From a virus, in the IMG/VR virus record IMGVR_UViG_3300037993_001242, positions 32,001-96,000 of that record: a stretch of 64,000 nt of DNA; one strand, 5' to 3'. Numbering within the stretch: the first letter of the stretch is position 1; each line of letters opens with the position of its first letter. Shown piece by piece: positions 18,370-42,307 of the stretch. A model generated the notes under the pieces. It searched no databases and was not told the DNA's origin. It was given only the letters and a program-made list of their open reading frames with translations. Position numbers and translations under genes: made by a program.

Positions 18370-18443
18370 TGGCACCGGTGGCCCGAATCGGACGGGAACT
18401 AAGCAGTCCAAAGCTGCCTGTGCTGCCATTACACCACACCGGT
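18370..18443 (-). tRNA. tRNA-Gln(TTG)
   Basis: Cloverleaf, loop CTTTGGA, CCA encoded; T-loop TCCGATT. Confidence 0.85.
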
Positions 18444-18449
18444 ATAAAT

Positions 18450-18525
18450 TGGTACCTCCGGTGGGGCATGATCCCACAACTCCCGCATTAAAAGTGCGGT
18501 ACTCTACCAATTGAGTTACGGAGGT
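18450..18525 (-). tRNA. tRNA-Lys(TTT)
   Basis: Loop CTTTTAA; T-loop ATCATGC; CCA. Confidence 0.9.
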
Positions 18526-18531
18526 ATGAAA

Positions 18532-18615
18532 TGGTCGGCGCGGGGAGAATTGGACTCCCAAGGCTCACTCCCTCTCAAGGAGGCCGGTCTGCCATTCCCG
18601 GTAAACCACGCGCCG
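18532..18615 (-). tRNA. tRNA-Leu(GAG), atypical D and variable arms
   Basis: Loop TTGAGAG; T-loop TCCAATT; CCA. Confidence 0.8.
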
Positions 18616-18616
18616 T

Positions 18617-18692
18617 TGGTTGGCCCGGTGGGGTACAATCCCACGACCTGACGATTATGAGTCGACTGCTCTATCAACTGAGCTACGGGCCA
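18617..18692 (-). tRNA. tRNA-CAT, probably Ile2
   Basis: Loop CTCATAA; C4/C5 in acceptor stem (TilS determinants); T-loop ATTGTAC. Confidence 0.8.
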
Positions 18693-18858
18693 CTCTTGAA
18701 ATTTTCCAGCCTTTGCGTTTGGCGTACAGGTATACATCGTCGTAGGACTTGCCCACCATCCAATGAATGATCGGGGCCGCTCGCGTGCAAATCAGCAGGC
18801 TGCCTTCAAATTCGGCTCCAGCGCAAAAATAACCGCTGTCGAATTGCAGCATGAACAT
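18655..18858 (-). CDS. Small hypothetical protein
   Basis: FCAGAEF...AAPIIHWMVGK; 3' end overlaps the tRNA. Confidence 0.5.
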   Translation of the reverse strand: MFMLQFDSGYFCAGAEFEGSLLICTRAAPIIHWMVGKSYDDVYLYAKRKGWKISRVARSSVDRAVDS

Positions 18859-18862
18859 AAAA

Positions 18863-18952
18863 TGGCGGAGGGTGCAGGCTTCGATCCTGCGCAGGTGTTA
18901 CCCCGACTTCTGGTTAGCAACCAGATACTTTACCAGACTCAGTCAACCCTCC
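18863..18952 (-). tRNA. tRNA-Ser(GCT)
   Basis: Loop TTGCTAA, long variable arm; T-loop ATCGAAG. Confidence 0.9.
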
Positions 18953-19263
18953 AAATACACTTCAAAACCACGACGCTCACCGTCCTCAACCCAGATGCCG
19001 TTGATGATGATTTCCTTGCCGATATTTTTTTGCGTCACTTTTTCCAGTTCGCCGTCTTCGCTCCCGACGTATTCCCATTTGCCGTGTCCGGCACCGGGCC
19101 ACAACTGCGCTTTATAGCGTCGGGGGCCACGGGTGCGTTCGTCCAGCTTGTCGTTGAAAGTGATGGTGACGCCGCTCGGCAAGTTTTCCGCCGTCTGCAA
19201 AAAGATAATCTCGTCGGGCCGCTTGTTGTTCAGGTCTTTGAATGTGATGGTGTTCATGCTCAT
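18943..19263 (-). CDS. Hypothetical protein
   Basis: MSMNTITF... 106 aa. Confidence 0.5.
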   Translation of the reverse strand: MSMNTITFKDLNNKRPDEIIFLQTAENLPSGVTITFNDKLDERTRGPRRYKAQLWPGAGHGKWEYVGSEDGELEKVTQKNIGKEIIINGIWVEDGERRGFEVYLEG

Positions 19264-19282
19264 GTTCCCAAGAACACGATTT

Positions 19283-19546
19283 TCAAATTTTGAACGGATG
19301 CAGCGGCGCGCCTTGTGCCATGCAATCATGCGCCCAATTTTGCGTATAGTCACAAACCGGACACACCCAACCTTTTTCTGTGGCGATTAAAATCCCGTGA
19401 TCGCCTTCATGATGTTCTTCAGCGTATTTGTGGTGGGCGTCATCGTTGCGGTTGCTACAGGTGAAGGGATGCACCCAGTCACACTGCTGCCACGCATTCA
19501 AACCCTTTACTTGCTGTTTATCCCATGGCGCGTAAATTTTGCCCAT
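19283..19546 (-). CDS. Hypothetical Cys/His-containing protein
   Basis: WQQCDWVHPFTC...GWVCPVCDYTQNWAH. Confidence 0.65.
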   Translation of the reverse strand: MGKIYAPWDKQQVKGLNAWQQCDWVHPFTCSNRNDDAHHKYAEEHHEGDHGILIATEKGWVCPVCDYTQNWAHDCMAQGAPLHPFKI

Positions 19547-19550
19547 AAGA

Positions 19551-19847
19551 TCATCGGGTTACCCAAAGCCCCATTCGCTCACAATGACGTTCGTTCAACG
19601 GAAACGGCCCCGTCCAGCCAACCTGTTTCAAATCCGAAAGAATATGCTGCCGTGCAGCTTCAGCGGCCTTCGGCCCCCACAGGTGCGCTACTTCGGCGAT
19701 CCCGGCTTCATGATGGCGTTTACGCCGGTGAGCAACGCCGCCACAGCCGGGCAGATCGTGGCAGGCATCCAACCACACGTGGACTTCGCGAAAACCTTGA
19801 CCATACGTGCTGATCGATTCAGCGCAATGTTCTTCCAAAGTTGGCAT
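19551..19847 (-). CDS. Hypothetical His-rich protein
   Basis: EEHC...EVHVWLD...HRRKRHH...AARQHILSD. Confidence 0.65.
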   Translation of the reverse strand: MPTLEEHCAESISTYGQGFREVHVWLDACHDLPGCGGVAHRRKRHHEAGIAEVAHLWGPKAAEAARQHILSDLKQVGWTGPFPLNERHCERMGLWVTR

Positions 19848-19850
19848 AAA

Positions 19851-20078
19851 TTAAGAATACCGGTCGGGCAGACGGGCGCGCCAGTTGTCCTCCCAGTTTG
19901 CTGCTGCTTCAAATTGAGCGCGCACTTCTTCCAAAGTGGGCGGTGGTAAATTGCGCAGGTTTTCCATGCGTTGTTTCAGCCATAACGGAGCACCGAGACC
20001 GTCATCATAGTCACCGGTGCTGAGCGCTGTCAGCGCACAATGCTTAAAATCTTCATGTGTGCCTTCTTCAATTATCAT
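19851..20078 (-). CDS. Hypothetical protein
   Basis: 75-aa ORF in a co-oriented run. Confidence 0.5.
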   Translation of the reverse strand: MIIEEGTHEDFKHCALTALSTGDYDDGLGAPLWLKQRMENLRNLPPPTLEEVRAQFEAAANWEDNWRARLPDRYS

Positions 20079-20088
20079 CGAAATAAAA

Positions 20089-20118
20089 GCGGCTGGACGG
20101 AAATATCCATCCAGCCGC
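20089..20118 (-). terminator. Intrinsic terminator after the Ro60 gene
   Basis: GCGGCTGGA/TCCAGCCGC stem followed by a T-run on the minus strand. Confidence 0.7.
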
Positions 20119-20132
20119 CGTGATTGTCTACG

Positions 20133-21848
20133 CTAATCTTCGGCTTCGTCGGCAGCAACCTTGCGGTCGCCCCGGATGAAGTCGGCGATTACCGGCGGAG
20201 CCGACGCGTCGAAACCGACCACGTCCATGCCCCACTTGTCCTCCGGGTCGTTGACCGTGAAGTCGTTGGCGCAGGTACCCACGAACACTGACCGGGTATC
20301 CGGCACGAACTTTTCACGGTACTCCCGCAGGCGCAGAGTTGGATGCGGGCCTTGGTTGACCTCGCCGTCGGTCATAACGATCAGACCGCCGATCTTCAGA
20401 CGGTTTTGCAGTGCGTACTCGATTGCCAAGCTGATGTTGGTCGAACCGAAGTTGTTCACCTGTGCCCGACGGCACGCCGTTTCCAGCGTCATGCCCTTGC
20501 GGATGCCAAGCTCGCGGAAGGTATCCGCGAATCCGAAGATATGGCATTCCGGCTCGACGCTGGCGTGAACCAGCGACAGGGCGGCGACGGCCTCACACGA
20601 AGACAGGGGAGTTCCTGCCATCGCCGAGGACATCGAACCGGACACGTCCAGCGCGATCAACAGCGGCTTGCCGCACGGTTCAACGTTCGGGAACGCCGCG
20701 TAAAAGGCTTCGTCCAGCGCCGTCATGATTGACGGAACCGGCGTCCAGCTTAGCTTACCCTTGTCACCATGGCCTTGACCGTAAATCTTGGTCGCGATCA
20801 AGACCTGCATCGGGTGAACGCGTGACTTCTTCAGGAACGCGCCGTCCTGCAACCGCTTCTGGACGAGCTTGGTGGCTTCGCCCAGCGGCTTCAGGAGACC
20901 GAGGCTGGTCATCTTGCCAAGATTACGGATCGTCGCCGTCAACGGCATCTTCTGCAACAGGGCTTCCCAGACCGCGAGGCTGTTGAGCTTCTCGGTCGGT
21001 ACGGCCTCACGCGGCAGGTTGTGCTCGGTGATCAGCTTGACCAGCGCCTTTTCGTCGGCAGTCTTGGCTTCCTCGAACGCGCCGATGATGTCCGGCAGAT
21101 ACTTTTTGACGGAAGGATACTTCCGAATACGCGGGATGTCCGGTGCCATTGACTTCGGCAGGTTGGGAAACTTTCGGGTGACCTCGCGGGCACCCAGCGC
21201 GTCCTTGCCGCCGATGATCCAGCGGAAGACGGCCTGCTGTGCCTTGACCTCGGTGACCGGGTGGGCCACGCGAAGCACGTCACGAGCCGACCAGCCGTCG
21301 CGCTGCTGATACTTGACGACCTGCGCCGCCAAACGGTCAGCGGGCATGTCCGTGAACCAGCGGGCGATAGCGCGCCGGAAACCAGAGCCGCCGCCCCGCA
21401 TCGCCGAACAGTACTGCATGAAGTGGTACAGGTGCGTACCAATCCGGCAGACCTTCGGCAGCGCGGCATAAGCTGCCTGCCGGGCTTCCGCGTCACCGTG
21501 GGTGGCGACCAGCGCCAGTGCAAAAATGGCCGGGTCGTTCTTGTAGGCGCGTCCCTTGACGGACACATCTACAATCTCCTTGACCGTCCGCACACCGCTG
21601 GCCTTGATACACTGCAACACCGCGTCGTGGCCCTGCTTGAGCAAGTCCTTTTCGTCGATGTAATAGGTGCCGCCTTCGGTACCGAGAATCAAAAACCGCG
21701 CCAGCTTGTCCCAGATGCTGACCTTCCAGACGTACGCGCCGTCCGAGTCCTGAACCTGATTCTTGCCCGGCAACGGAGTGTATACAGAGGTCGTGCGCGA
21801 ACGCTTGGCTGACCGGGTGTCGAACTGCTTGGTGCTGATGAGTGCCAT
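20133..21848 (-). CDS. rsr: Ro60/TROVE-domain RNA-binding protein with C-terminal vWA
   Basis: LARFLILGTEGGTYY, KYQQRDGWSARDVLRVAHP, MPLTATIRNLGKMT, RVHPM, LIALDVSGSM (MIDAS), IVMTDGE, DVVGFDASAP; start MALISTK with AAGGA upstream. Confidence 0.95.
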   Translation of the reverse strand: MALISTKQFDTRSAKRSRTTSVYTPLPGKNQVQDSDGAYVWKVSIWDKLARFLILGTEGGTYYIDEKDLLKQGHDAVLQCIKASGVRTVKEIVDVSVKGRAYKNDPAIFALALVATHGDAEARQAAYAALPKVCRIGTHLYHFMQYCSAMRGGGSGFRRAIARWFTDMPADRLAAQVVKYQQRDGWSARDVLRVAHPVTEVKAQQAVFRWIIGGKDALGAREVTRKFPNLPKSMAPDIPRIRKYPSVKKYLPDIIGAFEEAKTADEKALVKLITEHNLPREAVPTEKLNSLAVWEALLQKMPLTATIRNLGKMTSLGLLKPLGEATKLVQKRLQDGAFLKKSRVHPMQVLIATKIYGQGHGDKGKLSWTPVPSIMTALDEAFYAAFPNVEPCGKPLLIALDVSGSMSSAMAGTPLSSCEAVAALSLVHASVEPECHIFGFADTFRELGIRKGMTLETACRRAQVNNFGSTNISLAIEYALQNRLKIGGLIVMTDGEVNQGPHPTLRLREYREKFVPDTRSVFVGTCANDFTVNDPEDKWGMDVVGFDASAPPVIADFIRGDRKVAADEAED

Positions 21849-21940
21849 ATCCTTGGAATGACAATCACACTCCAACTACGATGTGTTTTCGGGTTTTCAC
21901 CGTTGGCCCATGCCATGGGCCTGATTCTGTTTTTGTTGGA

Positions 21941-21963
21941 CGCAGGCAAGTTGGCGGCCTGCG
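21941..21963 (-). promoter_or_regulatory. Miniature Y-RNA-like bulged-C stem in the Ro60 leader
   Basis: Minus strand CGCAGGC-C-GCCAAC-TTGCCTGCG mirrors the GGGC-C-GA/TTGCCC stems of the Y RNAs. Confidence 0.45.
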
Positions 21964-21992
21964 AATGTCTACATTGCTGAGAACTGCATTTT

Positions 21993-22367
21993 TTAAGATT
22001 TGTTTACGAAAAAATTACAGGTTGACGTTGGCTCAACCCTGAACCGGTGTAAAAGGCATCTTGGCGGAAACCGATGCCAACCTTGTGCTTTTTTATAATA
22101 CACACAACAAATACATCCTAGTACGTCGCCCGGTGCCCGTTTTCTACTGGAACTAAGATAACCAACTTCTTCCTGTTGCCCGCGTTTGAACAATCTTTTG
22201 ACTGTGCCGACTGACCGCTGTTGAATTTTGGCTATCTTTACCCACGAAACTCCGGTTCTGCGAAGCTCGATAATGTAGGCCCAGCGCCGCCGCATCATTT
22301 TTCGGCCATTTTCAGGGGAAAGAATGCGCAGAACTTCTCGTTTGCTGACAACGTCTGGATCAAACAT
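21993..22367 (-). CDS. Helix-turn-helix protein
   Basis: LRRTGVSWVKIAKIQQRSVGTVKRLF. Confidence 0.6.
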   Translation of the reverse strand: MFDPDVVSKREVLRILSPENGRKMMRRRWAYIIELRRTGVSWVKIAKIQQRSVGTVKRLFKRGQQEEVGYLSSSRKRAPGDVLGCICCVYYKKAQGWHRFPPRCLLHRFRVEPTSTCNFFVNKS

Positions 22368-22380
22368 GCAGTAAATAAAA

Positions 22381-22517
22381 GCGGGCAAGGGTTTGGGTCG
22401 GAGATGGCTTTCGCCAAACCACTGCTCTGCCAATTGAGCTACCCCGGCATTTGCGCCGGAGGCTGGAATCGAACCAGCAACCAACGGTTTTATGATAACC
22501 AACCACAGTCGGCCCGC
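22381..22517 (-). ncRNA. Y RNA 1, YrlA-like with permuted tRNA module
   Basis: GCGGGCCGA...GGTTATC...T-arm GCTGGTTCGATTCCAGC, acceptor CTCCGGC/GCCGGGG closed by a loop, D-arm TAGCTCAATTGGCAGAGC...CCTTGCCCGC; ~530 nt upstream of Ro60, same strand. Confidence 0.85.
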
Positions 22518-22523
22518 TAAAGT

Positions 22524-22835: not shown

Positions 22836-22940
22836 GCCGTAACTACTAAAGGCACAGGCGGGGCGTTCTCATGGGGGTGGGAGCCACCACGCCCGAATCT
22901 CAGTTCCACCCTGAACTGCTTTCAATACCTGTGCCAAAAA

Positions 22941-23017
22941 TGGTGCCAAGGGCTGGTTTCGATCCAGCGACACCGACCTCTTCAGGGTCGTGCTCTACCA
23001 ATCTGAGCTACCTTGGC
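22941..23017 (-). tRNA. tRNA-Phe(GAA) copy 1
   Basis: Loop CTGAAGA; T-loop ATCGAAA. Confidence 0.9.
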
Positions 23018-23019
23018 AA

Positions 23020-23345: not shown

Positions 23346-23771
23346 TGGTGGAGGCGGCGAGAGTTGAACTCGCGTCTTTGACTCCGTTGCATGTTGCCAC
23401 TACACGCTTATCCCGTTTTGTACAAGCTCAGCCAGTTGGGCATCTATGTGAAAAAATCTGAGCAGGTTCGGTTGATCCAACCGTAGAAGCGCCGACATTG
23501 CTCGGCACTCACACGATCCTGCTGCATCGCTCGACCCGCCGTAGCAGGCATCCAGCGGCGAACGGTGTGGCGCTTTAGGCCACAGCAAGTTCGGCATTCA
23601 GGACGGCATCAGGGTTGGCGAAAATCGCTTCCGCCTGAGCCAGCAAGCCTGCCGGACAATCATTTGCTTCGTCAGCATTTGAGTTTTGATCCGAGTTTTT
23701 AGCGAGGCCAACGAATCATCCTCGGCGTGCAACAGCATACTTCAGTTTCAAATCGAAACCAGTACGCCCCC
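23346..23771 (-). ncRNA. ssrA: tmRNA
   Basis: 5' GGGGGCGTACTGGTTTCGA; 3' GCGAGTTCAACTCTCGCCGCCTCCACCA with G3-U70; tag frame 23575-23676 ADEANDCPAGLLAQAEAIFANPDAVLNAELAVA*. Confidence 0.93.
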
Positions 23772-23790
23772 ATTTCAAAGATCAAAAAAC

Positions 23791-23852
23791 GATGGGCAAG
23801 GTGGTGCAGGAAGGGTTGTCCAAGGATGATAACCTTCCAACTTCGGCCCATC
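23791..23852 (-). ncRNA. Y RNA 2, short (62 nt)
   Basis: GATGGGCCGA-AGTTGGAA-GGTTATC...CCTTGCCCATC. Confidence 0.75.
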
Positions 23853-23954
23853 AATTCGACCCGGCCCCGTCGTCAGTTCGTGCCGGAACGCACAAGAATG
23901 TCCATGCCCGGCTGATCAATTCCGGGCGCTGACCCAGTTGTACCTGTGCCAAAT

Positions 23955-24031
23955 TGGTTGCGGGGGAAGGATTCCAACCTCCGACCTCTTGGTTATGAGC
24001 CAAGCGCGCTTGCGGACTGCGCCACCCCGCG
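23955..24031 (-). tRNA. tRNA-fMet(CAT)
   Basis: C1:A72 mismatch, CGCGGGG acceptor; only two G-C pairs at the anticodon stem base; T-loop TTGGAAT. Confidence 0.85.
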
Positions 24032-24097: not shown

Positions 24098-24181
24098 TGG
24101 TCGGCGCGAAGGGACTTGAACCCCCAAGGATCACTCATTTTGAATGAGGTCAGTCTGCCATTCCTGATGAACCACGCGCCG
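24098..24181 (-). tRNA. tRNA-Leu(CAA)
   Basis: Loop TTCAAAA; expanded D region, short variable arm. Confidence 0.85.
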
Positions 24182-24506: not shown

Positions 24507-24591
24507 TGGTCGCCGGAGCGGGACTCGAACCCGCAAGGCTGCTGGATTTTAAGTCCAGTGGGTCTGCCAATTCCACCTTAACCACCCGGCG
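24507..24591 (-). tRNA. tRNA-Leu(TAA)
   Basis: Loop CTTAAAA; expanded D region, short variable arm. Confidence 0.85.
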
Positions 24592-26448: not shown

Positions 26449-26533
26449 TGGTGCCGGTGAAGGGACTCGAACCCCCAAGGCTGCGGCGTCCTAAGCGCCG
26501 TGGGTCTGCCAATTCCCCGTTAACCACACCGGC
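26449..26533 (-). tRNA. tRNA-Leu(TAG)
   Basis: Loop CTTAGGA. Confidence 0.85.
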
Positions 26534-26539
26534 ATAAAT

Positions 26540-26623
26540 TGGTCGCGCTGAGTGGACTTGAACCACCAAGGATCACCGCCTCTGAAGCGGGCCGGTCTGC
26601 CATTCCCGGTAAACCACAGCGCG
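26540..26623 (-). tRNA. tRNA-Leu(CAG)
   Basis: Loop TTCAGAG. Confidence 0.85.
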
Positions 26624-27791: not shown

Positions 27792-27866
27792 TGGTACGCC
27801 CGACTGGACTTTAACCAGTAACCTGTGGTTCCGAAGACCACTGCTCTATCATTGAGCTACGAGCGC
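27792..27866 (-). tRNA. tRNA-Arg(TCG)
   Basis: Loop CTTCGGA; T-loop TTAAAGT. Confidence 0.85.
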
Positions 27867-28791: not shown

Positions 28792-28868
28792 TGGTGCGGC
28801 GAGCAGGCTTCGATCCTGCGACTTCCACGATGTCAACGTGGCGATCTACCGGGCTGATCTACCGCCGC
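28792..28868 (-). tRNA. tRNA-Val(GAC)
   Basis: Loop TTGACAT; T-loop ATCGAAG. Confidence 0.9.
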
Positions 28869-28872: not shown

Positions 28873-28948
28873 TGGAGCCAGCAGAGGGCTTCGATCCCCC
28901 GACATTCAGTTTACAGAACTGACGCTCTACCAACTGAGCTATGCTGGC
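28873..28948 (-). tRNA. tRNA-Thr(TGT), C33
   Basis: Stem TCAGT/ACTGA, loop TCTGTAA; acceptor GCC.../...GGC-T like the other two Thr tRNAs. Confidence 0.75.
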
Positions 28949-28954: not shown

Positions 28955-29030
28955 TGGTGCGTTGGGTGGGCAACGATCCCACAATCTTCCGGGTAAGGGC
29001 CGGGTGCTCTGCCAATTGAGCTACCAACGC
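28955..29030 (-). tRNA. tRNA-Lys(CTT), C33
   Basis: Loop CCCTTAC; T-loop ATCGTTG. Confidence 0.8.
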
Positions 29031-29035: not shown

Positions 29036-29111
29036 TGGTCGCTGTGGGCGGGTACGATCCGCCGACCTTTTCCTTATGAGGGAACTGCGCTACCAACTGC
29101 GCCACACAGCG
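29036..29111 (-). tRNA. tRNA-Met(CAT), elongator
   Basis: Loop CTCATAA; C1-G72 paired; T-loop ATCGTAC. Confidence 0.8.
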
Positions 29112-29689: not shown

Positions 29690-29765
<76 letters not shown>

Positions 29766-29769: not shown

Positions 29770-29845
29770 TGGAGCGAACGACGGGAAACGATCCCGCAAC
29801 ATCCGCGTTGGAAGCGCGGTGCTCTGCCAATTGAGCTACGTTCGC
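29770..29845 (-). tRNA. tRNA-Gly(TCC)
   Basis: Loop CTTCCAA; T-loop ATCGTTT. Confidence 0.9.
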
Positions 29846-30236: not shown

Positions 30237-30312
30237 TGGAGACCAACCAGAGACTCGAACTCTGCTAAATCGGTTTTGCAGACCGTTCCGTTCACCCGCT
30301 CGGTCGTTGGCC
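30237..30312 (-). tRNA. tRNA-Cys(GCA)
   Basis: Loop CTGCAAA; canonical T-loop TTCGAGT. Confidence 0.9.
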
Positions 30313-30740: not shown

Positions 30741-30815
30741 TGGGGTGACGTACGAGATTCGGACTCGTGCTTTTTGTTCCACAAACAAAGGTGCTACCAC
30801 TACACCAACGCCACC
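30741..30815 (-). tRNA. tRNA-His(GTG)
   Basis: Loop TTGTGGA; G-1:C73 encoded; T-loop TCCGAAT. Confidence 0.9.
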
Positions 30816-30825: not shown

Positions 30826-30901
30826 TGGAGCCTGTGGCCGGTGACGATCCGACAACCTGCGCATTACGAATGCGCCGCTCTGCCAATTGAGCTACACAGG
30901 C
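30826..30901 (-). tRNA. tRNA-Thr(CGT)
   Basis: Loop TTCGTAA; T-loop ATCGTCA. Confidence 0.9.
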
Positions 30902-30989: not shown

Positions 30990-31066
30990 TGGCGTTCCCG
31001 ACTGGACTTTAACCAGTGGCCTCCGCCTTCGCAGAGCGGCGCTCTATACAACTGAGCTACGGGAAC
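30990..31066 (-). tRNA. tRNA-Arg(GCG)
   Basis: Loop CTGCGAA; T-loop TTAAAGT. Confidence 0.85.
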
Positions 31067-31150: not shown

Positions 31151-31227
31151 TGGTACTTCCGGCTGGAGTTTAACCAGTAACCTCTTCCTTCGGAGGGAAG
31201 CGCTCTATACAATTGAGCTACGGAAGC
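31151..31227 (-). tRNA. tRNA-Arg(CCG)
   Basis: Loop CTCCGAA; T-loop TTAAACT. Confidence 0.85.
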
Positions 31228-31234: not shown

Positions 31235-31630
31235 TTAAAGTTCAAAATCCTTGGCAAATCGGATGCGCTTTGATTGATTATTTACAGTGGGATCAACGCG
31301 TAAATATGCAATACTGCTGCCGGGAACAGAATCAACAGGAACCAAATAACAGCAACCTGTGTCAGGACAGTAAACTCCAAAAAGTTCAGCTTGACCTTTG
31401 TAATCACGCCGACCTGTTTTCCAACTGAAACCGCTGGCAGTATTAAAAACTATTGAACCGTTCCTAAGCCGACCTGTTTTACACTGTATACGCTTAAAAA
31501 TACCACCTTCATCCAAGAGCAAATCGTAACGGCTACCTTCTCCAAACGGACGCAACACATTCTTCCCAAGCTCTGTTAGCCTAACAGCAATTTTTAGCTC
31601 GGACAAATTTCCTTTTTGGGCCGTATTCAC
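31235..31630 (-). mobile_element. PD-(D/E)XK endonuclease, group I intron-associated type
   Basis: KGNLSE, PFGEGSRYDLL, RIQCKTG; AT-richer; inserted between tRNAs. Confidence 0.85.
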
Positions 31631-31646
31631 GCAACAAAGAACAAAG

Positions 31647-31725
31647 TGGCAGCCCATACCGGTGTCGATCCGGTTTCTGCTGCTTGAGAAGCAGCCATCC
31701 TAAGCCAAACGTAGACGAATGGGCC
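31647..31725 (-). tRNA. tRNA-Glu(CTC)
   Basis: Loop TTCTCAA; T-loop ATCGACA. Confidence 0.85.
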
Positions 31726-31733
31726 AAATTAAA

Positions 31734-31797
31734 TACGGGCAAGGTGTCAGACTGGGATGGTTCATTTCAAGTGATAACCCAATCAATTCGGCCCGTA
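31734..31797 (-). ncRNA. Y RNA 3, short (64 nt)
   Basis: TACGGGCCGA-ATTGATTG-GGTTATC...CCTTGCCCGTA. Confidence 0.75.
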
Positions 31798-31800
31798 AAA

Positions 31801-32058: not shown

Positions 32059-32137
32059 TGGCGGCCTGACGCTGGTTTTACTCCAGCGTGTTAGCCCGTC
32101 GCTCGTGCCCGTAAGCAGTTGCGTTGGGTTTCAGACC
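32059..32137 (-). other. tRNA-like element with intact acceptor/T-arm but scrambled D/anticodon region
   Basis: GGTCTGA/TCAGGCC-G-CCA, T-arm GCTGG-AGTAAAA-CCAGC; no anticodon hairpin found. Confidence 0.55.
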
Positions 32138-32305: not shown

Positions 32306-32382
32306 TGGTCGTCACGGTTGGCTTCGATCCAACGGCCTGTCGGTTATCGACCGACTGCTCTACCGGGCTGAGCTACGTGACG
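32306..32382 (-). tRNA. tRNA-Ile(GAT), C33
   Basis: Loop TCGATAA; T-loop ATCGAAG. Confidence 0.85.
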
Positions 32383-32387: not shown

Positions 32388-32520
32388 TAACGGGCAAGGA
32401 TCGGCGTGGATGTTTTTAGCGCTCTACCGTTGAGCTATCCCGGCATTGGAGCCGGGAACAGGACTCGAACCTGTATCTCCTCATTAGCATTGAGATAACC
32501 CACAACACTTCGGCCCGTTA
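32388..32520 (-). ncRNA. Y RNA 4, YrlA-like with permuted tRNA module
   Basis: TAACGGGCCGAAGTGTTGTGGGTTATCTCAAT...T-arm ACAGGTTCGAGTCCTGT, TCCCGGC-TCCAAT-GCCGGGA, D-arm TAGCTCAACGGTAGAGC...CCTTGCCCGTTA. Confidence 0.85.
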
Positions 32521-32523: not shown

Positions 32524-32611
32524 TGGCGGCGGGTAAAGGAATCCAACCTCTGCTGCTGTTACGCAGGCCACAGTTTTCGGAACTGGCACCTTAGCGCTCG
32601 GTCAACCCGCC
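32524..32611 (-). tRNA. tRNA-Ser(CGA), C33
   Basis: Loop TCCGAAA; long variable arm; T-loop TTGGATT. Confidence 0.85.
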
Positions 32612-32626: not shown

Positions 32627-32716
32627 TGGCGGAGGGGCAAGGATTTGAACCTTGGCACGTATTACCGTGGCCTCAACTTTCCAAGCTGGCACCTTACCGG
32701 ACTCGGTCAACCCTCC
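32627..32716 (-). tRNA. tRNA-Ser(GGA)
   Basis: Loop TTGGAAA; canonical T-loop TTCAAAT. Confidence 0.9.
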
Positions 32717-33087: not shown

Positions 33088-33175
33088 TGGCGGAGGGTAC
33101 AGGGATTCAACCTGTGCCGGTTTTACCCGGTCGACGGTTTTCAAGACCGTAGCATTCGCGCTCTGCCAACCCTCC
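33088..33175 (-). tRNA. tRNA-Ser(TGA)
   Basis: Loop CTTGAAA; T-loop TTGAATC. Confidence 0.9.
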
Positions 33176-33176: not shown

Positions 33177-33253
33177 TGGCGTCCCCGGCAGGAGTCCAAC
33201 CTGCGACACAGTCGTTTAGGAAACGACGGCTCTTGCAACTGAGCTACGGGGAC
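33177..33253 (-). tRNA. tRNA-Arg(CCT)
   Basis: Loop TTCCTAA; T-loop TTGGACT. Confidence 0.9.
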
Positions 33254-34906: not shown

Positions 34907-34983
34907 TGGCACTCCCGGCAGGATTCCAACCTGCGACCTTGAATTTAGAAAATTCCTGCTCTATGCAACTGAGCTACGGGAGC
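34907..34983 (-). tRNA. tRNA-Arg(TCT)
   Basis: Loop TTTCTAA; T-loop TTGGAAT. Confidence 0.9.
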
Positions 34984-36266: not shown

Positions 36267-36342
36267 TGGCTCCAGAGGCTGGGCACGATCCAGCAACATC
36301 CCGGTTAACAGCCGGGTACTCTACCAATTGAGCTACTCTGGA
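36267..36342 (-). tRNA. tRNA-Asn(GTT)
   Basis: Loop CTGTTAA; T-loop ATCGTGC. Confidence 0.9.
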
Positions 36343-36445: not shown

Positions 36446-36518
36446 TGGTCGCGCCGGACGGAGTTGAACACGTCATCTCGCACTTCCGGGTGCCGCTCTA
36501 ACATTAAGCTACGGCGCG
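36446..36518 (-). tRNA. Degenerate Pro-like tRNA with 6-nt anticodon loop
   Basis: CGCGCCG/CGGCGCG-A-CCA acceptor; GCAC-CCGGAA-GTGC; bulged T-stem. Confidence 0.55.
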
Positions 36519-36526: not shown

Positions 36527-36602
36527 TGGTCGGGACAACCGGGCACGATCCGGCAACCTCTCGGCCCCAAACCGAGCGCTCTACCAATTGAGCTATGCCC
36601 CG
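36527..36602 (-). tRNA. tRNA-Pro(TGG)
   Basis: Loop TTTGGGG; T-loop ATCGTGC. Confidence 0.9.
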
Positions 36603-36814: not shown

Positions 36815-36891
36815 TGGTCTGGGTGACAGGCTTCGATCCTGCAACCTCGTGTACCCGAAACACGCGCTCTACCAGATTGAGCTACACCCAG
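36815..36891 (-). tRNA. tRNA-Pro(CGG)
   Basis: Loop TTCGGGT; T-loop ATCGAAG. Confidence 0.9.
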
Positions 36892-37200: not shown

Positions 37201-37220
37201 ACGCCCACAAGAACGTAAAA

Positions 37221-37297
37221 TGGTCGGGATGACGGGCTTCGATCCCGTGACCTCCAGTCCCCCAGACTGGCGCGCTACCTGACTGCGCTACATCCCG
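37221..37297 (-). tRNA. tRNA-Pro(GGG)
   Basis: Loop CTGGGGG; T-loop ATCGAAG. Confidence 0.9.
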
Positions 37298-37298
37298 G

Positions 37299-37586: not shown

Positions 37587-37761
37587 ACTCCACAAGAACC
37601 AAAAGTTCCCCAAGCGGCAGGAGCACCGCCCGCCCGCGTTACTTCGTCACTGCCTGACTAACAGACCGTTGCGATGCTCAGCTTGGGTAAATTGGCGGCC
37701 CTCGATATTACGGCGGCTGCGCCGCCACAAGAAGTGGCCACTTCTTGTATCTCAGGCCAAA

Positions 37762-37839
37762 TGGCGGGACGTACGGGCTTCGATCCCGTGACCTTCCGGT
37801 AGACAGCCGGTTGCTCTAGCCAGACTGAGCTAACGTCCC
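37762..37839 (-). tRNA. tRNA-Asp(GTC)
   Basis: Loop CTGTCTA; T-loop ATCGAAG. Confidence 0.9.
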
Positions 37840-37844
37840 AAAAA

Positions 37845-38150: not shown

Positions 38151-38231
38151 ACCTTTAACTACGTTGGCGGGCTTGGCTGTTAATTCAGCCCGTAGCGCGC
38201 CACGCGGCGGATCAGGCCGCAAGCCCATAAA

Positions 38232-38322
38232 TGGTGGCAACGGCTGGAGTCGAACCAGCGGTGTTTTCCTCTTGGGTAGCGCTTTTACAGAGCGTTGTCT
38301 TCGCCACTTGACGCACGTTGCC
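38232..38322 (-). tRNA. tRNA-Tyr(GTA)
   Basis: Loop CTGTAAA, long variable arm; canonical T-loop TTCGACT. Confidence 0.9.
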
Positions 38323-38333
38323 GTATTTAAAAC

Positions 38334-38846
38334 ATGAAAATCATTTACGCTATGGTTGTGGCTCTTGTCCTGACTGGCTGTGCAACTCAGCGGGGATTCC
38401 CGCCGAATAACGGCATCGGCAACTTTGACCGCTTGGACGACAAAGTCTATCGCGGCGCACAACCCTCGCACGAAGCCATTGCCAAACTGGCAAAAGCTGG
38501 CGTGACCAGAGTAATCAATCTCCGCCTGCCCGGCGATACGGCACCGTACGAAAAATCGGCGTGTCGGGCCGAAGGCATCGAATACTTCAACGTACCCATT
38601 GGTGGTTTTTCCGCTCCCACTGATGCCCAAGTACACCGGGTATTTTCTTTGATTGAGACCGCCCATGGGCCGGTCTACATCCATTGCCAGTGGGGCTGTG
38701 ACCGCACCGGAACCATGTGCGCCTGCTGGCGAATCCATCACGATGGCTGGAGCAATGCACAGGCACTACAGGAAGCCGTCATTTACGGCCTGTCACCTTG
38801 GGAACAGAGCATGAGGTACTACATCCTGCATTACCACGAAAAATAA
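38334..38846 (+). CDS. Dual-specificity/tyrosine phosphatase with lipoprotein signal
   Basis: Lipobox LVLTGC; YRGAQP; P-loop HCQWGCDRTG. Confidence 0.85.
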   Translation: MKIIYAMVVALVLTGCATQRGFPPNNGIGNFDRLDDKVYRGAQPSHEAIAKLAKAGVTRVINLRLPGDTAPYEKSACRAEGIEYFNVPIGGFSAPTDAQVHRVFSLIETAHGPVYIHCQWGCDRTGTMCACWRIHHDGWSNAQALQEAVIYGLSPWEQSMRYYILHYHEK

Positions 38847-38931
38847 CGGGCAAGGTTTTGGCATCGGGTATGCTGGGTTTCCCCGGCGGTTTGTATCAAT
38901 AACAAGATAACCGACAGTCCATTCGGCCCGT
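38846..38931 (-). ncRNA. Y RNA 5 (86 nt)
   Basis: ACGGGCCGA-ATGGACTGTC-GGTTATC...CCTTGCCCGT. Confidence 0.75.
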
Positions 38932-38935
38932 AAAA

Positions 38936-39011
<76 letters not shown>

Positions 39012-39016
39012 AAAAG

Positions 39017-39457
39017 TTATTCTTCATCTGCTGATTCCCAGTTGTTGCAGCAACCGCCCCAAAAAATCGGGCCGGTTACTTCTTTGCAGGAGCCTTCGTC
39101 CTTGCCGCCGGAATAATACTCGCAGTTGCCACAATGTGTCGGCCCATCCTCGATGTATCCGACGGCTTCTTTGGGCAGCAACTCCAGTGGCGTCGCACCT
39201 TCTTTCAGGAAAGTTTTGCCCCCGATGAAGGCTGCGCACACGCCATGTTCACCATCACAAGCTGGCGGCGTTGTGACGAAGCACTCACTCTTGGGCGTGT
39301 TAAAGAATATGCACTTGCCACAACGCGCACCGGGATCGGTTTGACCGGATTTGTTGAGCATGTCCGGGGTCATGTATACAACCTGTGCTTGGAGCATTTT
39401 GCCATCTTCGGCTTCATGCTCTTGCAGTCCCATCACCCGGCGCAAAATCGGATTCAT
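39017..39457 (-). CDS. Tandem HiPIP-like Fe-S protein
   Basis: Two CxxC...C...G.C repeats: RCGKCIFF...ECF...HGVCAAF and HCGNCEYY...SCK...GGCCNNW. Confidence 0.55.
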   Translation of the reverse strand: MNPILRRVMGLQEHEAEDGKMLQAQVVYMTPDMLNKSGQTDPGARCGKCIFFNTPKSECFVTTPPACDGEHGVCAAFIGGKTFLKEGATPLELLPKEAVGYIEDGPTHCGNCEYYSGGKDEGSCKEVTGPIFWGGCCNNWESADEE

Positions 39458-39483
39458 GCCCTAAATACCGGTCTGAAAATAGA

Positions 39484-39513
39484 AGGCCGGGGGGCTTCCA
39501 CGCTCCCCGGCCT
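39484..39513 (-). terminator. Terminator after the long ncRNA
   Basis: AGGCCGGGG/CCCCGGCCT stem followed by a T-rich run on the minus strand. Confidence 0.65.
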
Positions 39514-39524
39514 AAGTTTTATAC

Positions 39525-39767
39525 CAAGGCGTTTTTGAACTTTGATCGCCAACAGCCTGCTGTCCTTAGCTTAATCCCGGCGCTTTACCGCTGAGCTACA
39601 CCGCCATAGTTTTATGGGGGCGGTGACTGGATTTGAACCAGCGACTCCGGTTTGTTAGACAACACCTGTCAGGTCACGTCTTGCTATTGTGTAACGCACT
39701 AGGTGCGCTACGGTTGAGCCTTCGGGTGATAGCCTGACATTGAACTTTAATTTTAACCATCACCTTG
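39525..39767 (-). ncRNA. ~245-nt structured RNA with circularly permuted tRNA module
   Basis: Terminal CAAGGTG/CGCCTTG; TGTCAGG/CCTGACA and TGTTGTC/GACAGCA helices; T-arm, acceptor with CCCA, and D-arm at 39577-39650; AAAGTTCAA repeated on both sides. Confidence 0.7.
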
Positions 39768-39818
39768 AGCTTGGGCGAGCGGCCCGTAAAATCAATTTAC
39801 AGGCCGCCGCACCCGAAA

Positions 39819-40013
39819 TTATGGTTTGCCCTCCAGTTGTTTCAGCCGTTCTTTATAGATTTTTTCAATCTCGCTTTCCCTTATACCCCGAAGATTGCGG
39901 CCACCGGCATTCATACACGTCGCGTGCTCTTGCGTATTCGTGGTCAGCCTCTGCGCTTTTTCCATTTCAGCACGCCGCCACACGTCCAGTCTGCGTTTTG
40001 CGCTTTCGTCCAT
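39819..40013 (-). CDS. Small hypothetical protein
   Basis: MDESAKRRLDVW...; co-transcribed with the 254-aa gene. Confidence 0.5.
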   Translation of the reverse strand: MDESAKRRLDVWRRAEMEKAQRLTTNTQEHATCMNAGGRNLRGIRESEIEKIYKERLKQLEGKP

Positions 40014-40017
40014 AAGA

Positions 40018-40782
40018 CTATTTGTTGCCACTGAACACGAAGCTCAGCAACTGCTTGCCGATCTTCTTGGTCAGGTCGACTTCTTCGTCGTTGGCCCGTG
40101 AGCGCGCCCGGCGGACGGCTCGCGTCAGGATTTCGATCCGGTCGAGCAGTTCGGCTTTTTCCGCCGGGGTGATCAACGAAGACCACTCCTTTTCCTCAAC
40201 CTTGCCTACCGGCACATCGATGGCCAGCAACTGAGTCTGAGCCGGATGTTCCTTGGTGGCGTCGTACAGCACAATCGGCTTGGACTGTTTCTGCGTGCGA
40301 ATCTTGATCACTTCGCGTGCTTTGTAAACACCAGCGCCGCGCTGCGCATCCGCCACGAAACCCTTGGCCGGATCGAGCGTCGGGATGACCGCGATCAACT
40401 GCTGGATTTCCGTGCAGCGCTTTTCAAGCTCCAGCAGCGCCGTCGCCGGGACATCCTTAATTAGCACGGTACCCGCGTCGTCATCAAGCACGATGTCGGC
40501 CTTCGCCCGTGTATTGGCGTCAGCCACCTGATACGAGGCGTCGAGTGCCTTGGTCAGATGACCCTGAATCCATGTCAGTTCCTTGCCGACCGAGGTCTGC
40601 AAGAAGGACTGGGCTTCGGTCTGCGGCTCGGCTTTTTCCGCGTCGGGTTTGAAGACGACGTGCTTTTCCTCGAAAAGATGCCGCTTCTTTTCAAAGGTGT
40701 TGGCCTGATCGGTGCGGCACTTTTCGGCCTGCTGTTTCAGGCTGGTTTCAACTGCCAAAAGTTCATGTAGTTTGGTTGACAT
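40018..40782 (-). CDS. Helical/coiled-coil hypothetical protein
   Basis: 254 aa, MSTKLHELLAVE...ANTRAKADIV...PATALLELEK...AVRRARSRAND; strong sigma70-like promoter upstream. Confidence 0.8.
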   Translation of the reverse strand: MSTKLHELLAVETSLKQQAEKCRTDQANTFEKKRHLFEEKHVVFKPDAEKAEPQTEAQSFLQTSVGKELTWIQGHLTKALDASYQVADANTRAKADIVLDDDAGTVLIKDVPATALLELEKRCTEIQQLIAVIPTLDPAKGFVADAQRGAGVYKAREVIKIRTQKQSKPIVLYDATKEHPAQTQLLAIDVPVGKVEEKEWSSLITPAEKAELLDRIEILTRAVRRARSRANDEEVDLTKKIGKQLLSFVFSGNK

Positions 40783-40791
40783 AGTGGTTGG

Positions 40792-40819
40792 AGTGTATAC
40801 GCGTTAGATTTCTTGTCAA
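40792..40819 (-). promoter_or_regulatory. sigma70-like promoter TTGACA-N16-TACACT
   Basis: Upstream of the 254-aa gene; the same architecture occurs near 13520, 36185, 54565 and 57705. Confidence 0.7.
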
Positions 40820-40829
40820 CTTAAAATTT

Positions 40830-40905
40830 TGGTGGAGCCGAGGGGGTACGATCCCCTGACCTCCTGAATGCCATTCAGGCGCTCTGCCAACTGAGCTACG
40901 ACCCC
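40830..40905 (-). tRNA. tRNA-Ala(GGC)
   Basis: G3-U70; loop ATGGCAT; T-loop ATCGTAC. Confidence 0.9.
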
Positions 40906-41184
40906 AAAAGGGTGCTGCTGCCCGTTTTTCGCAGGCGTCGCCTTCCCGTTCACGGCTGGTTAGGTCTCAATTCTCCAGACGCTTATGGACTTGGCGCAAT
41001 AGTTGGCATCACGCACACGCCGCCCAAGACCGGGGCGTGCTCCGCGCTTAGTACACCAACCCGCAGCATAAATTAAAGAGCCGGGCCGAGTTTGCGACAG
41101 CGATTGCAACCGCCGCGCCTGATCGTGTGGCCTCTGCGTCCACCTTCCGGTGCGCAACCGGAATACTCCCCGGATACCGTCGTC

Positions 41185-41259
41185 TGGTGGAGCCGATGGG
41201 GATTCAACCCACGACCTCCCGCGTGCGAGGCGGGCGCTCTGGCGCTGAGCTACGACCCC
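41185..41259 (-). tRNA. tRNA-Ala(CGC)
   Basis: G3-U70; loop CTCGCAC; T-loop TTGAATC; D-loop lacks GG. Confidence 0.85.
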
Positions 41260-41280
41260 AAATGAATTCCCCAGATGTCA

Positions 41281-41499
41281 GGAATCACCCAACATAGTCG
41301 CAAACGTGAGTCTTTATGAGTATTCGGCCATTTGGCTCCATCGGTAGCACTCCGACTTCGATACCAAAGCAGGGCTTTACCTGCAATACGGGTTGGTTTG
41401 ATTGGCACTTCCCGTAAACGACGTTAGCTGACCGAGCTACCTAATCAGCCTTAGCCACATTACGTTTGCCATGCTCTTCCCACGCTACGAGACGATTCC
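41281..41499 (-). ncRNA. Candidate structured ncRNA, ~220 nt, unknown class
   Basis: GGAATC/GATTCC ends, GCAAACGT/ACGTTTGC helix, hairpins TAGCT/AGCTA, GCAGG/CCTGC, TCGG/CCGA; no ORF. Confidence 0.5.
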
Positions 41500-41555
41500 A
41501 AGCTTACGGAACCTGCCTTTGCCCCCACCAAAGAGGCTTCAGCCACTGGAGAAAT

Positions 41556-41631
41556 TGGTGGAATCGACCGGGAACGATCCGGCAACTTTCGGCTTGCAAA
41601 ACCGACGCTCTACCGATTGAGCTACGACCCC
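41556..41631 (-). tRNA. tRNA-Ala(TGC)
   Basis: G3-U70; loop TTTGCAA; T-loop ATCGTTC. Confidence 0.9.
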
Positions 41632-42071
41632 TTTGAAATTGATGCGCGATACGCTTTGAGTTTGACCCGCCGGTCATCGTCAAACGGAATTTCACCGCCC
41701 AAATGGACGCCTTCGTAAATGGCCTCCCGGAGCAGCAGTTCAACGTTCAGCGATTCCATGGCTTCGAGCAGCAGGTTGTCGCTTTGGTCTCTGGTCAACG
41801 TCGCCAACGTCCACGTACCGTCGCTGTTCAAAACTTGCAGGACGTTGCGGTAAGCGCCGTCGTGCAGGACGGTTCCCATCCAATAGGTGCCGAAAGGCGG
41901 AATGAGATTCCAGATCGCTTTGGGCGTGCTGGCCCCATCCGACGGGGAACCGGTCGGCATCATGTATTGGACGCCGTTTTTGGCCACGTACACGAGGTCT
42001 TCCAGCAGAACGATATGCCTGCCGTCACTGGTTTCGTTGGCAATCGTCGGCTTTTTGAATCCATATTCCAT
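41622..42071 (-). CDS. DUF1353-like protein
   Basis: LLEDLVY, SDGASTP, GTVLHDGAY, SDNLLLEAM; GTAGTTA upstream. Confidence 0.8.
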   Translation of the reverse strand: MEYGFKKPTIANETSDGRHIVLLEDLVYVAKNGVQYMMPTGSPSDGASTPKAIWNLIPPFGTYWMGTVLHDGAYRNVLQVLNSDGTWTLATLTRDQSDNLLLEAMESLNVELLLREAIYEGVHLGGEIPFDDDRRVKLKAYRASISKGS

Positions 42072-42091
42072 GCCCTAACTACGCAACAAAA

Positions 42092-42165
42092 TGGAGCGAG
42101 TGAACGGTGTCGATCCGTCGTATCAGCCTTGGCAAGGCCGCGCTCTACCGTTGAGCTACACCCGC
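42092..42165 (-). tRNA. tRNA-Gly(GCC)
   Basis: Loop TTGCCAA; T-loop ATCGACA. Confidence 0.9.
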
Positions 42166-42231
42166 GTCACGCCGCGACATAACCGCGCTAAATCACGTTT
42201 CTAACACGTGCCAATCATGCAGCGGCAAAAA

Positions 42232-42307
42232 TGGCTGCCCGAAGTGGGGACGATCCACTACTCTTCTGATCCAGAGTCAGACGTGTTACCAGTTACACCA
42301 TCGGGCA
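42232..42307 (-). tRNA. tRNA-Gln(CTG)
   Basis: Loop CTCTGGA; T-loop ATCGTCC. Confidence 0.9.

Follow-up and report, generated by a model that had tools for sequence, protein, structure and literature searches.

Pervasive and apparently compensated T-loop remodelling in the tRNA array of an uncultured T4-like phage

Few letters in biology are as strongly conserved as T54-Psi55-C56 in the T loop and G18-G19 in the D loop of transfer RNA (tRNA). How, and under what pressure, can most of the tRNAs of a single phage dispense with them? The question is raised by a tRNA array at positions 18370-42307 of a 64,000-nucleotide stretch of viral DNA, hereafter the window, comprising bases 32001-96000 of the 199,098-bp IMG/VR virus record IMGVR_UViG_3300037993_001242 (CheckV completeness 82%). 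In the array 44 clear tRNA genes were identified; every one lies on the minus strand and encodes its CCA (44/44), and together they cover all 20 amino acids. The canonical TTCRA loop is retained in 7/44: Leu(caa), Leu(taa), Leu(tag), Leu(cag), Cys, Ser(gga) and Tyr. These are exactly the tRNAs named in the original prediction, a reading of the letters by a model, which had put the total at 45 rather than 44.

The remaining loops depart from the consensus at different positions. A54 is found in 25/44 tRNAs, facing T58 in 13 (ATCGTNN, ATCATNN, ATTGTAC) and A58 in 12 (ATCGAAG, ATCGAAA, ATCGACA). In another 12/44, T54 is kept with a changed base 55 or 56: C55 in three (Gln ttg, His, Leu gag), G56 in six (initiator-like Met, Ser cga, Ser tga, Arg cct, Arg tct, Ala cgc) and A56 in three (Arg tcg, Arg gcg, Arg ccg). 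The recount reproduces the predicted numbers, with 13 A54 tRNAs that also have T58, 12 tRNAs altered at 55 or 56 including TTAAA in three Arg tRNAs, and 26 tRNAs with A54 when the odd AGTAAAA element at 32059-32137 is added to the 25 clear genes. Some T arms are shared, letter for letter, by different tRNAs of the array. The genes and their T loops are listed below.

18370-18443, minus strand, tRNA-Gln(ttg): TCCGATT (C55)
18450-18525, minus strand, tRNA-Lys(ttt): ATCATGC (A54:T58)
18532-18615, minus strand, tRNA-Leu(gag): TCCAATT (C55); found by eye, missed by ARAGORN
18617-18692, minus strand, tRNA-Met/Ile2(cat): ATTGTAC (A54:T58; T56 with A19)
18863-18952, minus strand, tRNA-Ser(gct): ATCGAAG (A54:A58)
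22941-23017, minus strand, tRNA-Phe(gaa): ATCGAAA (A54:A58)
23955-24031, minus strand, initiator-like tRNA-Met (C1xA72): TTGGAAT (G56 with C19)
24098-24181, minus strand, tRNA-Leu(caa): TTCAAGT, canonical
24507-24591, minus strand, tRNA-Leu(taa): TTCGAGT, canonical
26449-26533, minus strand, tRNA-Leu(tag): TTCGAGT, canonical; wrongly labelled Arg by ARAGORN
26540-26623, minus strand, tRNA-Leu(cag): TTCAAGT, canonical
27792-27866, minus strand, tRNA-Arg(tcg): TTAAAGT (A56; base 19 ambiguous)
28792-28868, minus strand, tRNA-Val(gac): ATCGAAG
28873-28948, minus strand, tRNA-Thr(tgt): ATCGAAG
28955-29030, minus strand, tRNA-Lys(ctt): ATCGTTG
29036-29111, minus strand, tRNA-Met(cat): ATCGTAC
29690-29765, minus strand, tRNA-Thr(ggt): ATCATTC
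29770-29845, minus strand, tRNA-Gly(tcc): ATCGTTT
30237-30312, minus strand, tRNA-Cys(gca): TTCGAGT, canonical
30741-30814, minus strand, tRNA-His(gtg), with G-1: TCCGAAT (C55)
30826-30901, minus strand, tRNA-Thr(cgt): ATCGTCA
30990-31066, minus strand, tRNA-Arg(gcg): TTAAAGT (A56 with T19)
31151-31227, minus strand, tRNA-Arg(ccg): TTAAACT (A56 with T19)
31647-31725, minus strand, tRNA-Glu(ctc): ATCGACA (A54:A58), odd D arm; 36.6 bits
32142-32218, minus strand, tRNA-Glu(ttc): ATCGAAA
32225-32301, minus strand, tRNA-Phe(gaa): ATCGAAG
32306-32382, minus strand, tRNA-Ile(gat): ATCGAAG
32524-32611, minus strand, tRNA-Ser(cga): TTGGATT (G56 with C19)
32627-32716, minus strand, tRNA-Ser(gga): TTCAAAT, canonical
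33088-33175, minus strand, tRNA-Ser(tga): TTGAATC (G56 with C19)
33177-33253, minus strand, tRNA-Arg(cct): TTGGACT (G56 with C19)
34907-34983, minus strand, tRNA-Arg(tct): TTGGAAT (G56 with C19)
36267-36342, minus strand, tRNA-Asn(gtt): ATCGTGC
36527-36602, minus strand, tRNA-Pro(tgg): ATCGTGC
36815-36891, minus strand, tRNA-Pro(cgg): ATCGAAG
37221-37297, minus strand, tRNA-Pro(ggg): ATCGAAG
37762-37839, minus strand, tRNA-Asp(gtc): ATCGAAG
38232-38322, minus strand, tRNA-Tyr(gta): TTCGACT, canonical; canonical in relative L015 too
38936-39011, minus strand, tRNA-Trp(cca): ATCGTGG
40830-40905, minus strand, tRNA-Ala(ggc), with G3:U70: ATCGTAC
41185-41259, minus strand, tRNA-Ala(cgc): TTGAATC (G56 with C19)
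41556-41631, minus strand, tRNA-Ala(tgc): ATCGTTC
42092-42165, minus strand, tRNA-Gly(gcc): ATCGACA
42232-42307, minus strand, tRNA-Gln(ctg): ATCGTCC

The T-loop set of this array is an outlier, exceptional in both the density and the variety of its variants. The controls consist of tRNAs flanking Ro60, DUF7873 or LigA genes, taken from unrelated contigs of viral or metagenome origin, together with those of the Streptomyces phage StarPlatinum, the most telling control on account of its matching layout. Their loops are canonical in 115/121 cases, against 7/44 here (Fisher p = 1.6e-23), and A54 is found in 0/121 of them, against 25/44 here (Fisher p = 5e-18).

Genes in the window were called with ARAGORN, Rfam/Infernal and hand inspection. 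ARAGORN and Infernal return a transfer-messenger RNA (tmRNA) and about 40 tRNA genes in the array, all on the minus strand, while hand inspection supplies Ser(cga), Glu(ctc) and five tRNA-Leu whose D region is unusual. Two degenerate tRNA-like elements, at 32059-32137 and 36446-36518, stand beside the 44 clear genes. The 'Ser gct' reported by ARAGORN at 32447-32514 was rejected as a tRNA, as it belongs to a YrlA-like RNA. The five tRNA-Leu (18532-18615, 24098-24181, 24507-24591, 26449-26533 and 26540-26623) share an extended, odd D region (GTGGTT...GGAATGGCAGAC...); ARAGORN handles them wrongly and Infernal gives them low scores. Outside the window and far from the array, at G000:C1:111560-111633 on the minus strand, lies an amber suppressor tRNA (anticodon CUA) scoring 61.5 bits, with an encoded CCA and a canonical TTCGATC loop.

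Are the rewired tRNAs functional? In a gathering-level RF00005 scan of the window, 36/44 score 35-66 bits, most of them 47-66, and under laxer filters Arg(cct) and Ser(tga) reach 52.4 and 47 bits. Leu(taa), Leu(caa) and Leu(cag) lie below the RF00005 cut-off of 29, at 28.5, 28.2 and 26.1 bits, and tRNA-Cys is matched only by the tRNA-Sec model (32 bits). The identity elements, read from the sequence, are kept: G3:U70 in 3/3 Ala tRNAs, G-1 in His, C1xA72 in the initiator-like Met, and U33.

The changed letters are accompanied by changes in their tertiary partners, as counted in 72 tRNAs of the clade, comprising this phage and four relatives. Loops with U55/C56 pair with a D-loop GG in 47/48. 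When base 56 is G, A or T, a complementary base 19 (GC, GT or GA) is present in 12/13 and GG never; in the array alone, the 10 non-C56 tRNAs all lack GG and a complementary base 19 is found in 9/10. By this reading of the letters, the 19:56 pair would be maintained with other bases in those non-C56 tRNAs that have the complementary base. G55 loops are accompanied by A18 (AG or AT in the D loop) in 7/8. The 54/58 combinations of the clade are T/A in 32, A/T in 23 and A/A in 17, with T/T at zero. Loops with A54/A58 carry a purine at position 60 in 10/10 cases read by script here and in 73/73 in other genomes, while canonical loops have a pyrimidine there in 96%; the remaining two A54/A58 tRNAs of the array, Ser gct (ATCGAAG) and Glu ctc (ATCGACA), have a purine 60 too. 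The D loop spans 9-10 bases in 8/10 A54/A58 tRNAs and 8 bases in 13/13 A54:T58 tRNAs.

Because the tertiary partners co-vary, and because purine 60 and the extra D-loop residue match the A54/A58 type, the fold appears to be kept while its letters change. About 37 natural tRNAs, for most amino acids, would thereby dispense with the T54-Psi55-C56/G18-G19 letters and yet keep the pairs. The sequences support the view that the array tRNAs are functional and have undergone a systematic, compensated remodelling, one that is conserved among the relatives. The original prediction held that functional tRNAs had been remodelled systematically to escape a reader of the elbow; its account of the remodelling stands, whereas the escape is plausible but unproven. 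It is scarcely credible that the altered genes are pseudogenes in decay or artefacts of gene prediction. The elements at 32059-32137 and 36446-36518 are indeed degenerate, but the high covariance-model scores, the intact identity elements, the compensatory tertiary changes and the conservation in relatives largely refute this explanation for the array.

The phage encodes a T4-type major capsid protein, a prohead protease, a family A DNA polymerase, an NAD-dependent ligase and a Ro60 homologue. Megablast found no close cultured relative, matching tRNA fragments only. The DNA polymerase reaches at most 27% identity, to SPO1-like Bacillus phages; IMG/VR scans with the DNA polymerase and LigA returned no close relative, and no prophage-like relative occurs among the bacterial loci. 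Related contigs were traced through the DUF7873 gene and the ligase, yielding L336, L015, L016 and the more distant L018, with the same gene order and with LigA identities of 91, 82 and 66-67% to the first three. The orthologues of Gln ctg, Gly gcc, the three Ala, Trp and Asp mostly have A54 again, while tRNA-Tyr is again canonical. Position 58 alternates between A and T, so that Gly gcc reads ATCGACA, ATCGTAC, ATCGTTA and ATCGATA in four genomes, and Ala cgc shows three solutions across genomes (TTGAATC, ATCGTTG and, in L016, TGCGATC). Canonical loops are found in 0/19 class I orthologues, though the step from A54/A58 to canonical takes one mutation. In L018 (IMGVR_UViG_3300044712_002165, 1-12000), mostly G55/A18 combinations and 19:56 swaps are seen, with 3/13 loops canonical; six of its seven G55 loops (five TGCA, plus AGCG and TGAG) have A18 in the D loop. 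The trait is common to a small clade of uncultured T4-like phages whose orthologues swap among non-canonical solutions without a return to TTCRA.

The 5' portions of the tRNAs point outside the array. Over the first 48 bases, the 5' two-thirds of the molecule, an outside tRNA beats any in-array match in 28/33 cases, in a comparison biased toward outside matches by the far larger outside pool. The best outside match shares the amino acid in 19/33, and half of the outside matches are canonical; the first 42 bases of tRNA-Trp are identical to those of a Microbacterium phage tRNA-Trp with a canonical loop. A recent radiation of the A54 tRNAs from one ancestor was rejected on the strength of the 28/33 better outside matches.

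Alternative T loops are also found elsewhere, typically at low density. With a standard D arm followed by GGATCR as the search pattern for viruses, and its T58 version for bacteria, A54 loops were found in at least 117 viral contigs, usually as one to a few among canonical tRNAs, and A54:U58 loops in at least 120 bacterial contigs, mostly as single chromosomal tRNAs. Among the matches listed, the latter are His in Kiritimatiellia, Verrucomicrobia and Chloroflexota, Met in Spirochaetes and Bacteroidota, Lys in Gemmatimonadota and Patescibacteria, and Phe in Bacilli. T60 is almost never combined with A54:U58 in the bacterial loci (L216-L335). Lineage-typical forms recur in the same loci: tRNA-His with ATCGTGC in Kiritimatiellia, Verrucomicrobia, Lentisphaerae and Chloroflexota, and tRNA-Met with ATCGTGG in Spirochaetes and Segatella. 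In an unrelated phage, L044 (IMGVR_UViG_3300047444_000783), 11/32 loops have C55 (TCCGATT or TCCAATT) and four have A54:T58, without a purge of palindromes from its genome. T-loop remodelling recurs in other lineages, and the scatter of A54 loops through phyla and phages indicates that the variants are tolerated in nature. The premise of the original prediction that T54-Psi55-C56 is near-invariant in bacteria was too strong, given the many phyla and the other viral contigs with such loops. A literature search returned no report of A54-U58 loops or of T-loop remodelling in phage tRNAs.

A further constraint, absent from the original prediction, acts on the DNA itself. Thirty-eight short words are absent from both strands of the 199-kb genome, each expected 15-448 times, and nearly all are of restriction type, chiefly palindromes of 6 bp and degenerate sites (among them CCWGG, GGWCC, CYCGRG, GRGCYC, RGATCY, TTCGAA, GCCGGC, CGATCG, CTGCAG). 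TTCGAA, expected 97 times, has 0 copies. The relatives also lack TTCGAA, with purged sets that overlap but differ. The pattern points to a host or host range presumably rich in restriction systems. Of the canonical phage loops elsewhere, 25% read TTCGAA, and the purge may account for at most about half of the changes.

The non-tRNA features are as follows.

17383-17946, minus strand, HNH endonuclease flanking the array; homologues adjoin tRNA arrays in several unrelated contigs
20133-21875, minus strand, Ro60 homologue with TROVE and Ro60 vWA domains
22392-22505, minus strand, YrlA-like Y RNA with permuted tRNA module: TTCGATT, canonical; 39.9 bits (cut-off 69)
23346-23771, minus strand, tmRNA: TTCAACT, canonical
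23789-23855, minus strand, short Y-RNA-like stem-loop, no tRNA module
31235-31657, minus strand, PD-(D/E)XK endonuclease inside the array: PF11645, E 6e-32
31732-31800, minus strand, short Y-RNA-like stem-loop, no tRNA module
32059-32137, minus strand, odd tRNA-like element with CCA: AGTAAAA; by eye only
32388-32517, minus strand, YrlA-like Y RNA with permuted module: TTCGAGT, canonical; 35.9 bits (cut-off 69)
36446-36518, minus strand, degenerate tRNA-like element with CCA: TTCAACT, no U33; 36 bits
39546-39672, minus strand, YrlA-like Y RNA with permuted module: TTCAAAT, canonical; 27.4 bits (cut-off 69)

The three YrlA-like RNAs contain a permuted T arm-acceptor-D arm module, with two shorter Y-like stem-loops among them. 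Their modules score 39.9, 35.9 and 27.4 bits, below the RF02553 family threshold of 69; the permuted module and the nearby Ro60 gene are as in YrlA RNAs. As predicted, the tRNA mimics are canonical, both in the permuted modules (TTCGATT, TTCGAGT, TTCAAAT) and in the tmRNA (TTCAACT). A decoy role for the Y RNAs, also proposed at the outset, has no support beyond these canonical loops, which are the YrlA norm. The idea that the trait generally accompanies Ro60/Y RNA arrays was rejected, such arrays being canonical elsewhere, for example in StarPlatinum. The PD-(D/E)XK gene inside the array, assigned to PF11645, which we take to be a homing-endonuclease family, and the HNH gene at its edge likely encode homing endonucleases acting on tRNA gene DNA. 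Translation-linked genes comprise a PTH2 peptidyl-tRNA hydrolase and an HD-domain protein (PF13328 HD_4), and many genes of the array are orphans, matching no known family. The near-complete tRNA set, the tmRNA, PTH2 and the HD_4 protein suggest a partly self-sufficient translation kit.

Several further genes were seen in the window. At 38334-38846, within the array but on the plus strand, lies a dual-specificity phosphatase-like gene (PTP-NADK/DSPc, 73 bits); since it overlaps a 298-aa minus-strand open reading frame (ORF), the latter is probably spurious. A DSPc gene also adjoins the tRNA array of the unrelated phage L147. At 40018-40782 on the minus strand is the gene for the DUF7873 protein, whose homologues, numbering more than 1600 and 60-90% identical, are spread over very different phage contexts, temperate as well as large lytic. 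By this distribution the gene appears highly mobile among phages, and it was rejected as a clade marker, being present in many unrelated ones. At 60301-62424 on the plus strand, a radical SAM/SPASM enzyme is split by a Hint/intein domain.

What, then, drives the remodelling? The explanation favoured here is selection, at the RNA level, that removes the T54-Psi55-C56 signature from most phage tRNAs. What the sequences show is an elbow rewired base by base in apparently working tRNAs with the fold kept: U54-A58 gives way to A54-U58 or A54-A58, G19:C56 to C19:G56, U19:A56 or A19:U56, and, in the relatives, G18-U55 to A18-G55, a partner change accompanying each change. The rewired tRNAs would become poor substrates for a protein reading T-loop bases, most likely a tRNA-inactivating nuclease or a modifying toxin of the host or of competitors and less likely TrmA, TruB or TrmI, while the TTCGAA purge would add a secondary, DNA-level push on loops with A59. 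That such selection lets the phage tRNAs evade a T-loop-reading protein is a tentative reading, possible though short of likely. The pattern looks like avoidance rather than one new function because the solutions are many, all compensated and none reverting in relatives; selection away from T54-Psi55-C56 fits because orthologues switch among non-canonical forms and never to the canonical one. A broader form of the idea, rather unlikely as a whole, proposes an 'orthogonal elbow' in a T4-like soil/wetland phage clade. All three T-Psi-C/GG tertiary pairs would be re-lettered in most of about 45 tRNAs, insulating the translation kit from undiscovered T-loop-reading systems that inactivate tRNA, whether host immunity or the phage's own shut-off of the host, while the canonical Y RNAs and tmRNA would stay visible to host tRNA enzymes. 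A number of observations weigh against selection by a reader. We know of no anti-phage system directed at the elbow or T loop. Pfam searches of about 220 ORFs, PHROGs searches of 10 array ORFs and one Atlas look-up revealed no TrmA, TruB, TrmI, RNA ligase/kinase repair pair or recognisable RNase, and none of the approximately 220 phage ORFs was recognised as a nuclease that reads the elbow or as an enzyme acting on the T loop. The seven canonical tRNAs, the tmRNA, the Y RNAs and the amber suppressor tRNA would remain exposed. The T loops of orthologues diverge by 22%, not above the stems, giving no clear sign of an arms race, and StarPlatinum combines the same tRNA/Ro60/tmRNA layout with canonical loops, weakening the earlier reading. 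Restoring the canonical letters would recreate a purged word in 18/35 changed loops (16 TTCGAA, 2 GRGCYC), and A54:U58 and A54:A58 loops may be near-neutral alternatives, since they are present singly in many genomes.

The last two points lead to an explanation without any special reader, in which U54-A58, A54-U58 and A54-A58 loops and the 19:56 variants are interchangeable elbow isoforms that drifted and spread under relaxed constraint in a fast-evolving lineage, perhaps with gene conversion between neighbouring T arms, while the purging of TTCGAA, GRGCYC, RGATCY and other words drove loops from the most frequent canonical forms. The 38 absent words, the frequency of TTCGAA among canonical phage loops, its loss in the relatives, the scatter of A54 through viral contigs and bacterial phyla, the C55 loops of L044 and the T arms repeated within the array all fit this account, which is nonetheless doubtful. 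The purge does not seem to be the whole story because one substitution at 57 or 59 is enough to abolish TTCGAA in a loop that stays canonical, as in Leu, Cys, Tyr, the Y RNAs and the tmRNA; canonical loops are permitted by the DNA constraints, and those RNAs and Ser gga have them. Moreover, 17/35 changed loops have no purged-word explanation, and loops are canonical in L147, L028 and the StarPlatinum region, from each of which many palindromic words are missing. A54 as a general consequence of TTCGAA avoidance was rejected, no association being seen in other viruses, where 19/41 loci with ATCGAA loops have TTCGAA loops as well, without depletion of TTCGAA. Nor does drift readily account for orthologues that, in four relatives, have not returned to a canonical loop one mutation away. 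An improbable alternative is that the phage disables host tRNAs through their canonical T loop, its own set being immune. The near-complete set for 20 amino acids, together with the tmRNA, PTH2 and the HD_4 protein, would suit such a strategy, and a new nuclease could hide among the orphan array genes, but the ORF searches gave no candidate RNase, the sole PD-(D/E)XK protein falls in the presumed homing-endonuclease family, and the weapon would also hit the phage's canonical Leu, Cys, Tyr and Ser tRNAs, tmRNA, Y RNAs and suppressor tRNA. It is very improbable that the phage mirrors a host with the same odd elbows or without TrmA/TruB-type enzymes. Bacterial chromosomes do carry A54:U58 tRNAs, but the two widely sampled bacterial carriers, taken in full, have A54 in 3/44 and 1/35 tRNAs, and the neighbours at the 120 bacterial loci are nearly all canonical. 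The same tRNA also finds different solutions in the relatives, and the phage's Y RNA modules are canonical, known YrlA RNA modules being handled by host tRNA enzymes.

Whatever the cause, the array offers a rule book for alternative T loops, namely A54-U58 with a non-U60, A54-A58 with R60, and 19:56 and 18-55 swaps, which is useful for tRNA structure work and for the design of orthogonal tRNAs. The scatter of A54:U58 through bacterial phyla and phages qualifies the textbook view. If selection against the canonical elbow were confirmed, elbow-directed targeting of tRNA would form a new front of phage-host conflict beside the anticodon loop.

Several known systems resemble parts of this picture. 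In its layout, StarPlatinum (NC_048721, Streptomyces cluster BE) is comparable, with dozens of tRNAs, small ORFs, HNH genes, a Ro-like protein in the array and a tmRNA, as here; it differs in that 35/36 of its loops are canonical, CCA is encoded in 1/36, and its proteins have low similarity to those of this phage. Like the YrlA Y RNAs (RF02553), the permuted modules lie beside a Ro60 gene and have canonical TTCRA and GG loops, although their scores of 27-40 bits are below the family's cut-off. In T4, SegB is a homing endonuclease of the T-even tRNA gene cluster. As in such clusters, free-standing HNH and PD-(D/E)XK genes in or beside the array would represent a DNA-level pressure on tRNA genes; homing endonucleases, however, usually read one long site and not all T loops.

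Phage tRNAs are known to escape host anticodon nucleases by point changes in the anticodon loop (van den Berg et al. 2023, PMC10264068), and PARIS and retron cases of tRNA escape are cited in PMC13056530. As in those phage tRNAs, a conserved loop consensus is abandoned here with function apparently kept; a large set of tRNAs is interpreted as a safeguard against immunity that targets tRNA. In contrast to anticodon-nuclease escape, the changes lie in the T and D loops, for which no matching nuclease is known, and PMC10264068 is silent on the T loop. CdiA-CT E479, a PD-(D/E)XK tRNase, cuts within the T loop (PMC9086364) and shows that the T-Psi dinucleotide can be targeted by a bacterial toxin; A54, C55 or G55 would remove this target. 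It is, however, a contact-dependent inhibition toxin of Burkholderia and not a phage defence. The closest counterpart of the pairs themselves is found in eukaryotic initiator tRNA-Met and tRNA-Ala(AGC), which combine an A54/A58 pair with purine 60 and an extra D-loop residue; the unusual pairs of tRNA-Ala are stated to be absent from bacterial and archaeal tRNAs (PMC7566577). The phage A54/A58 tRNAs likewise have purine 60 and usually the extra D-loop residue, and loops such as ATCGAAA equal the eukaryotic initiator loop letter for letter. They differ in that the pair is present in 12 elongator tRNAs of a bacterial virus, and in that the R15/A48 pair is absent, base 48 of the phage tRNAs being a pyrimidine (the last variable-loop base is C or T). 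Relative to the known kinds, the array is best filed as a variant of phage tRNA sets combined with T-loop pairs of the eukaryotic initiator type.

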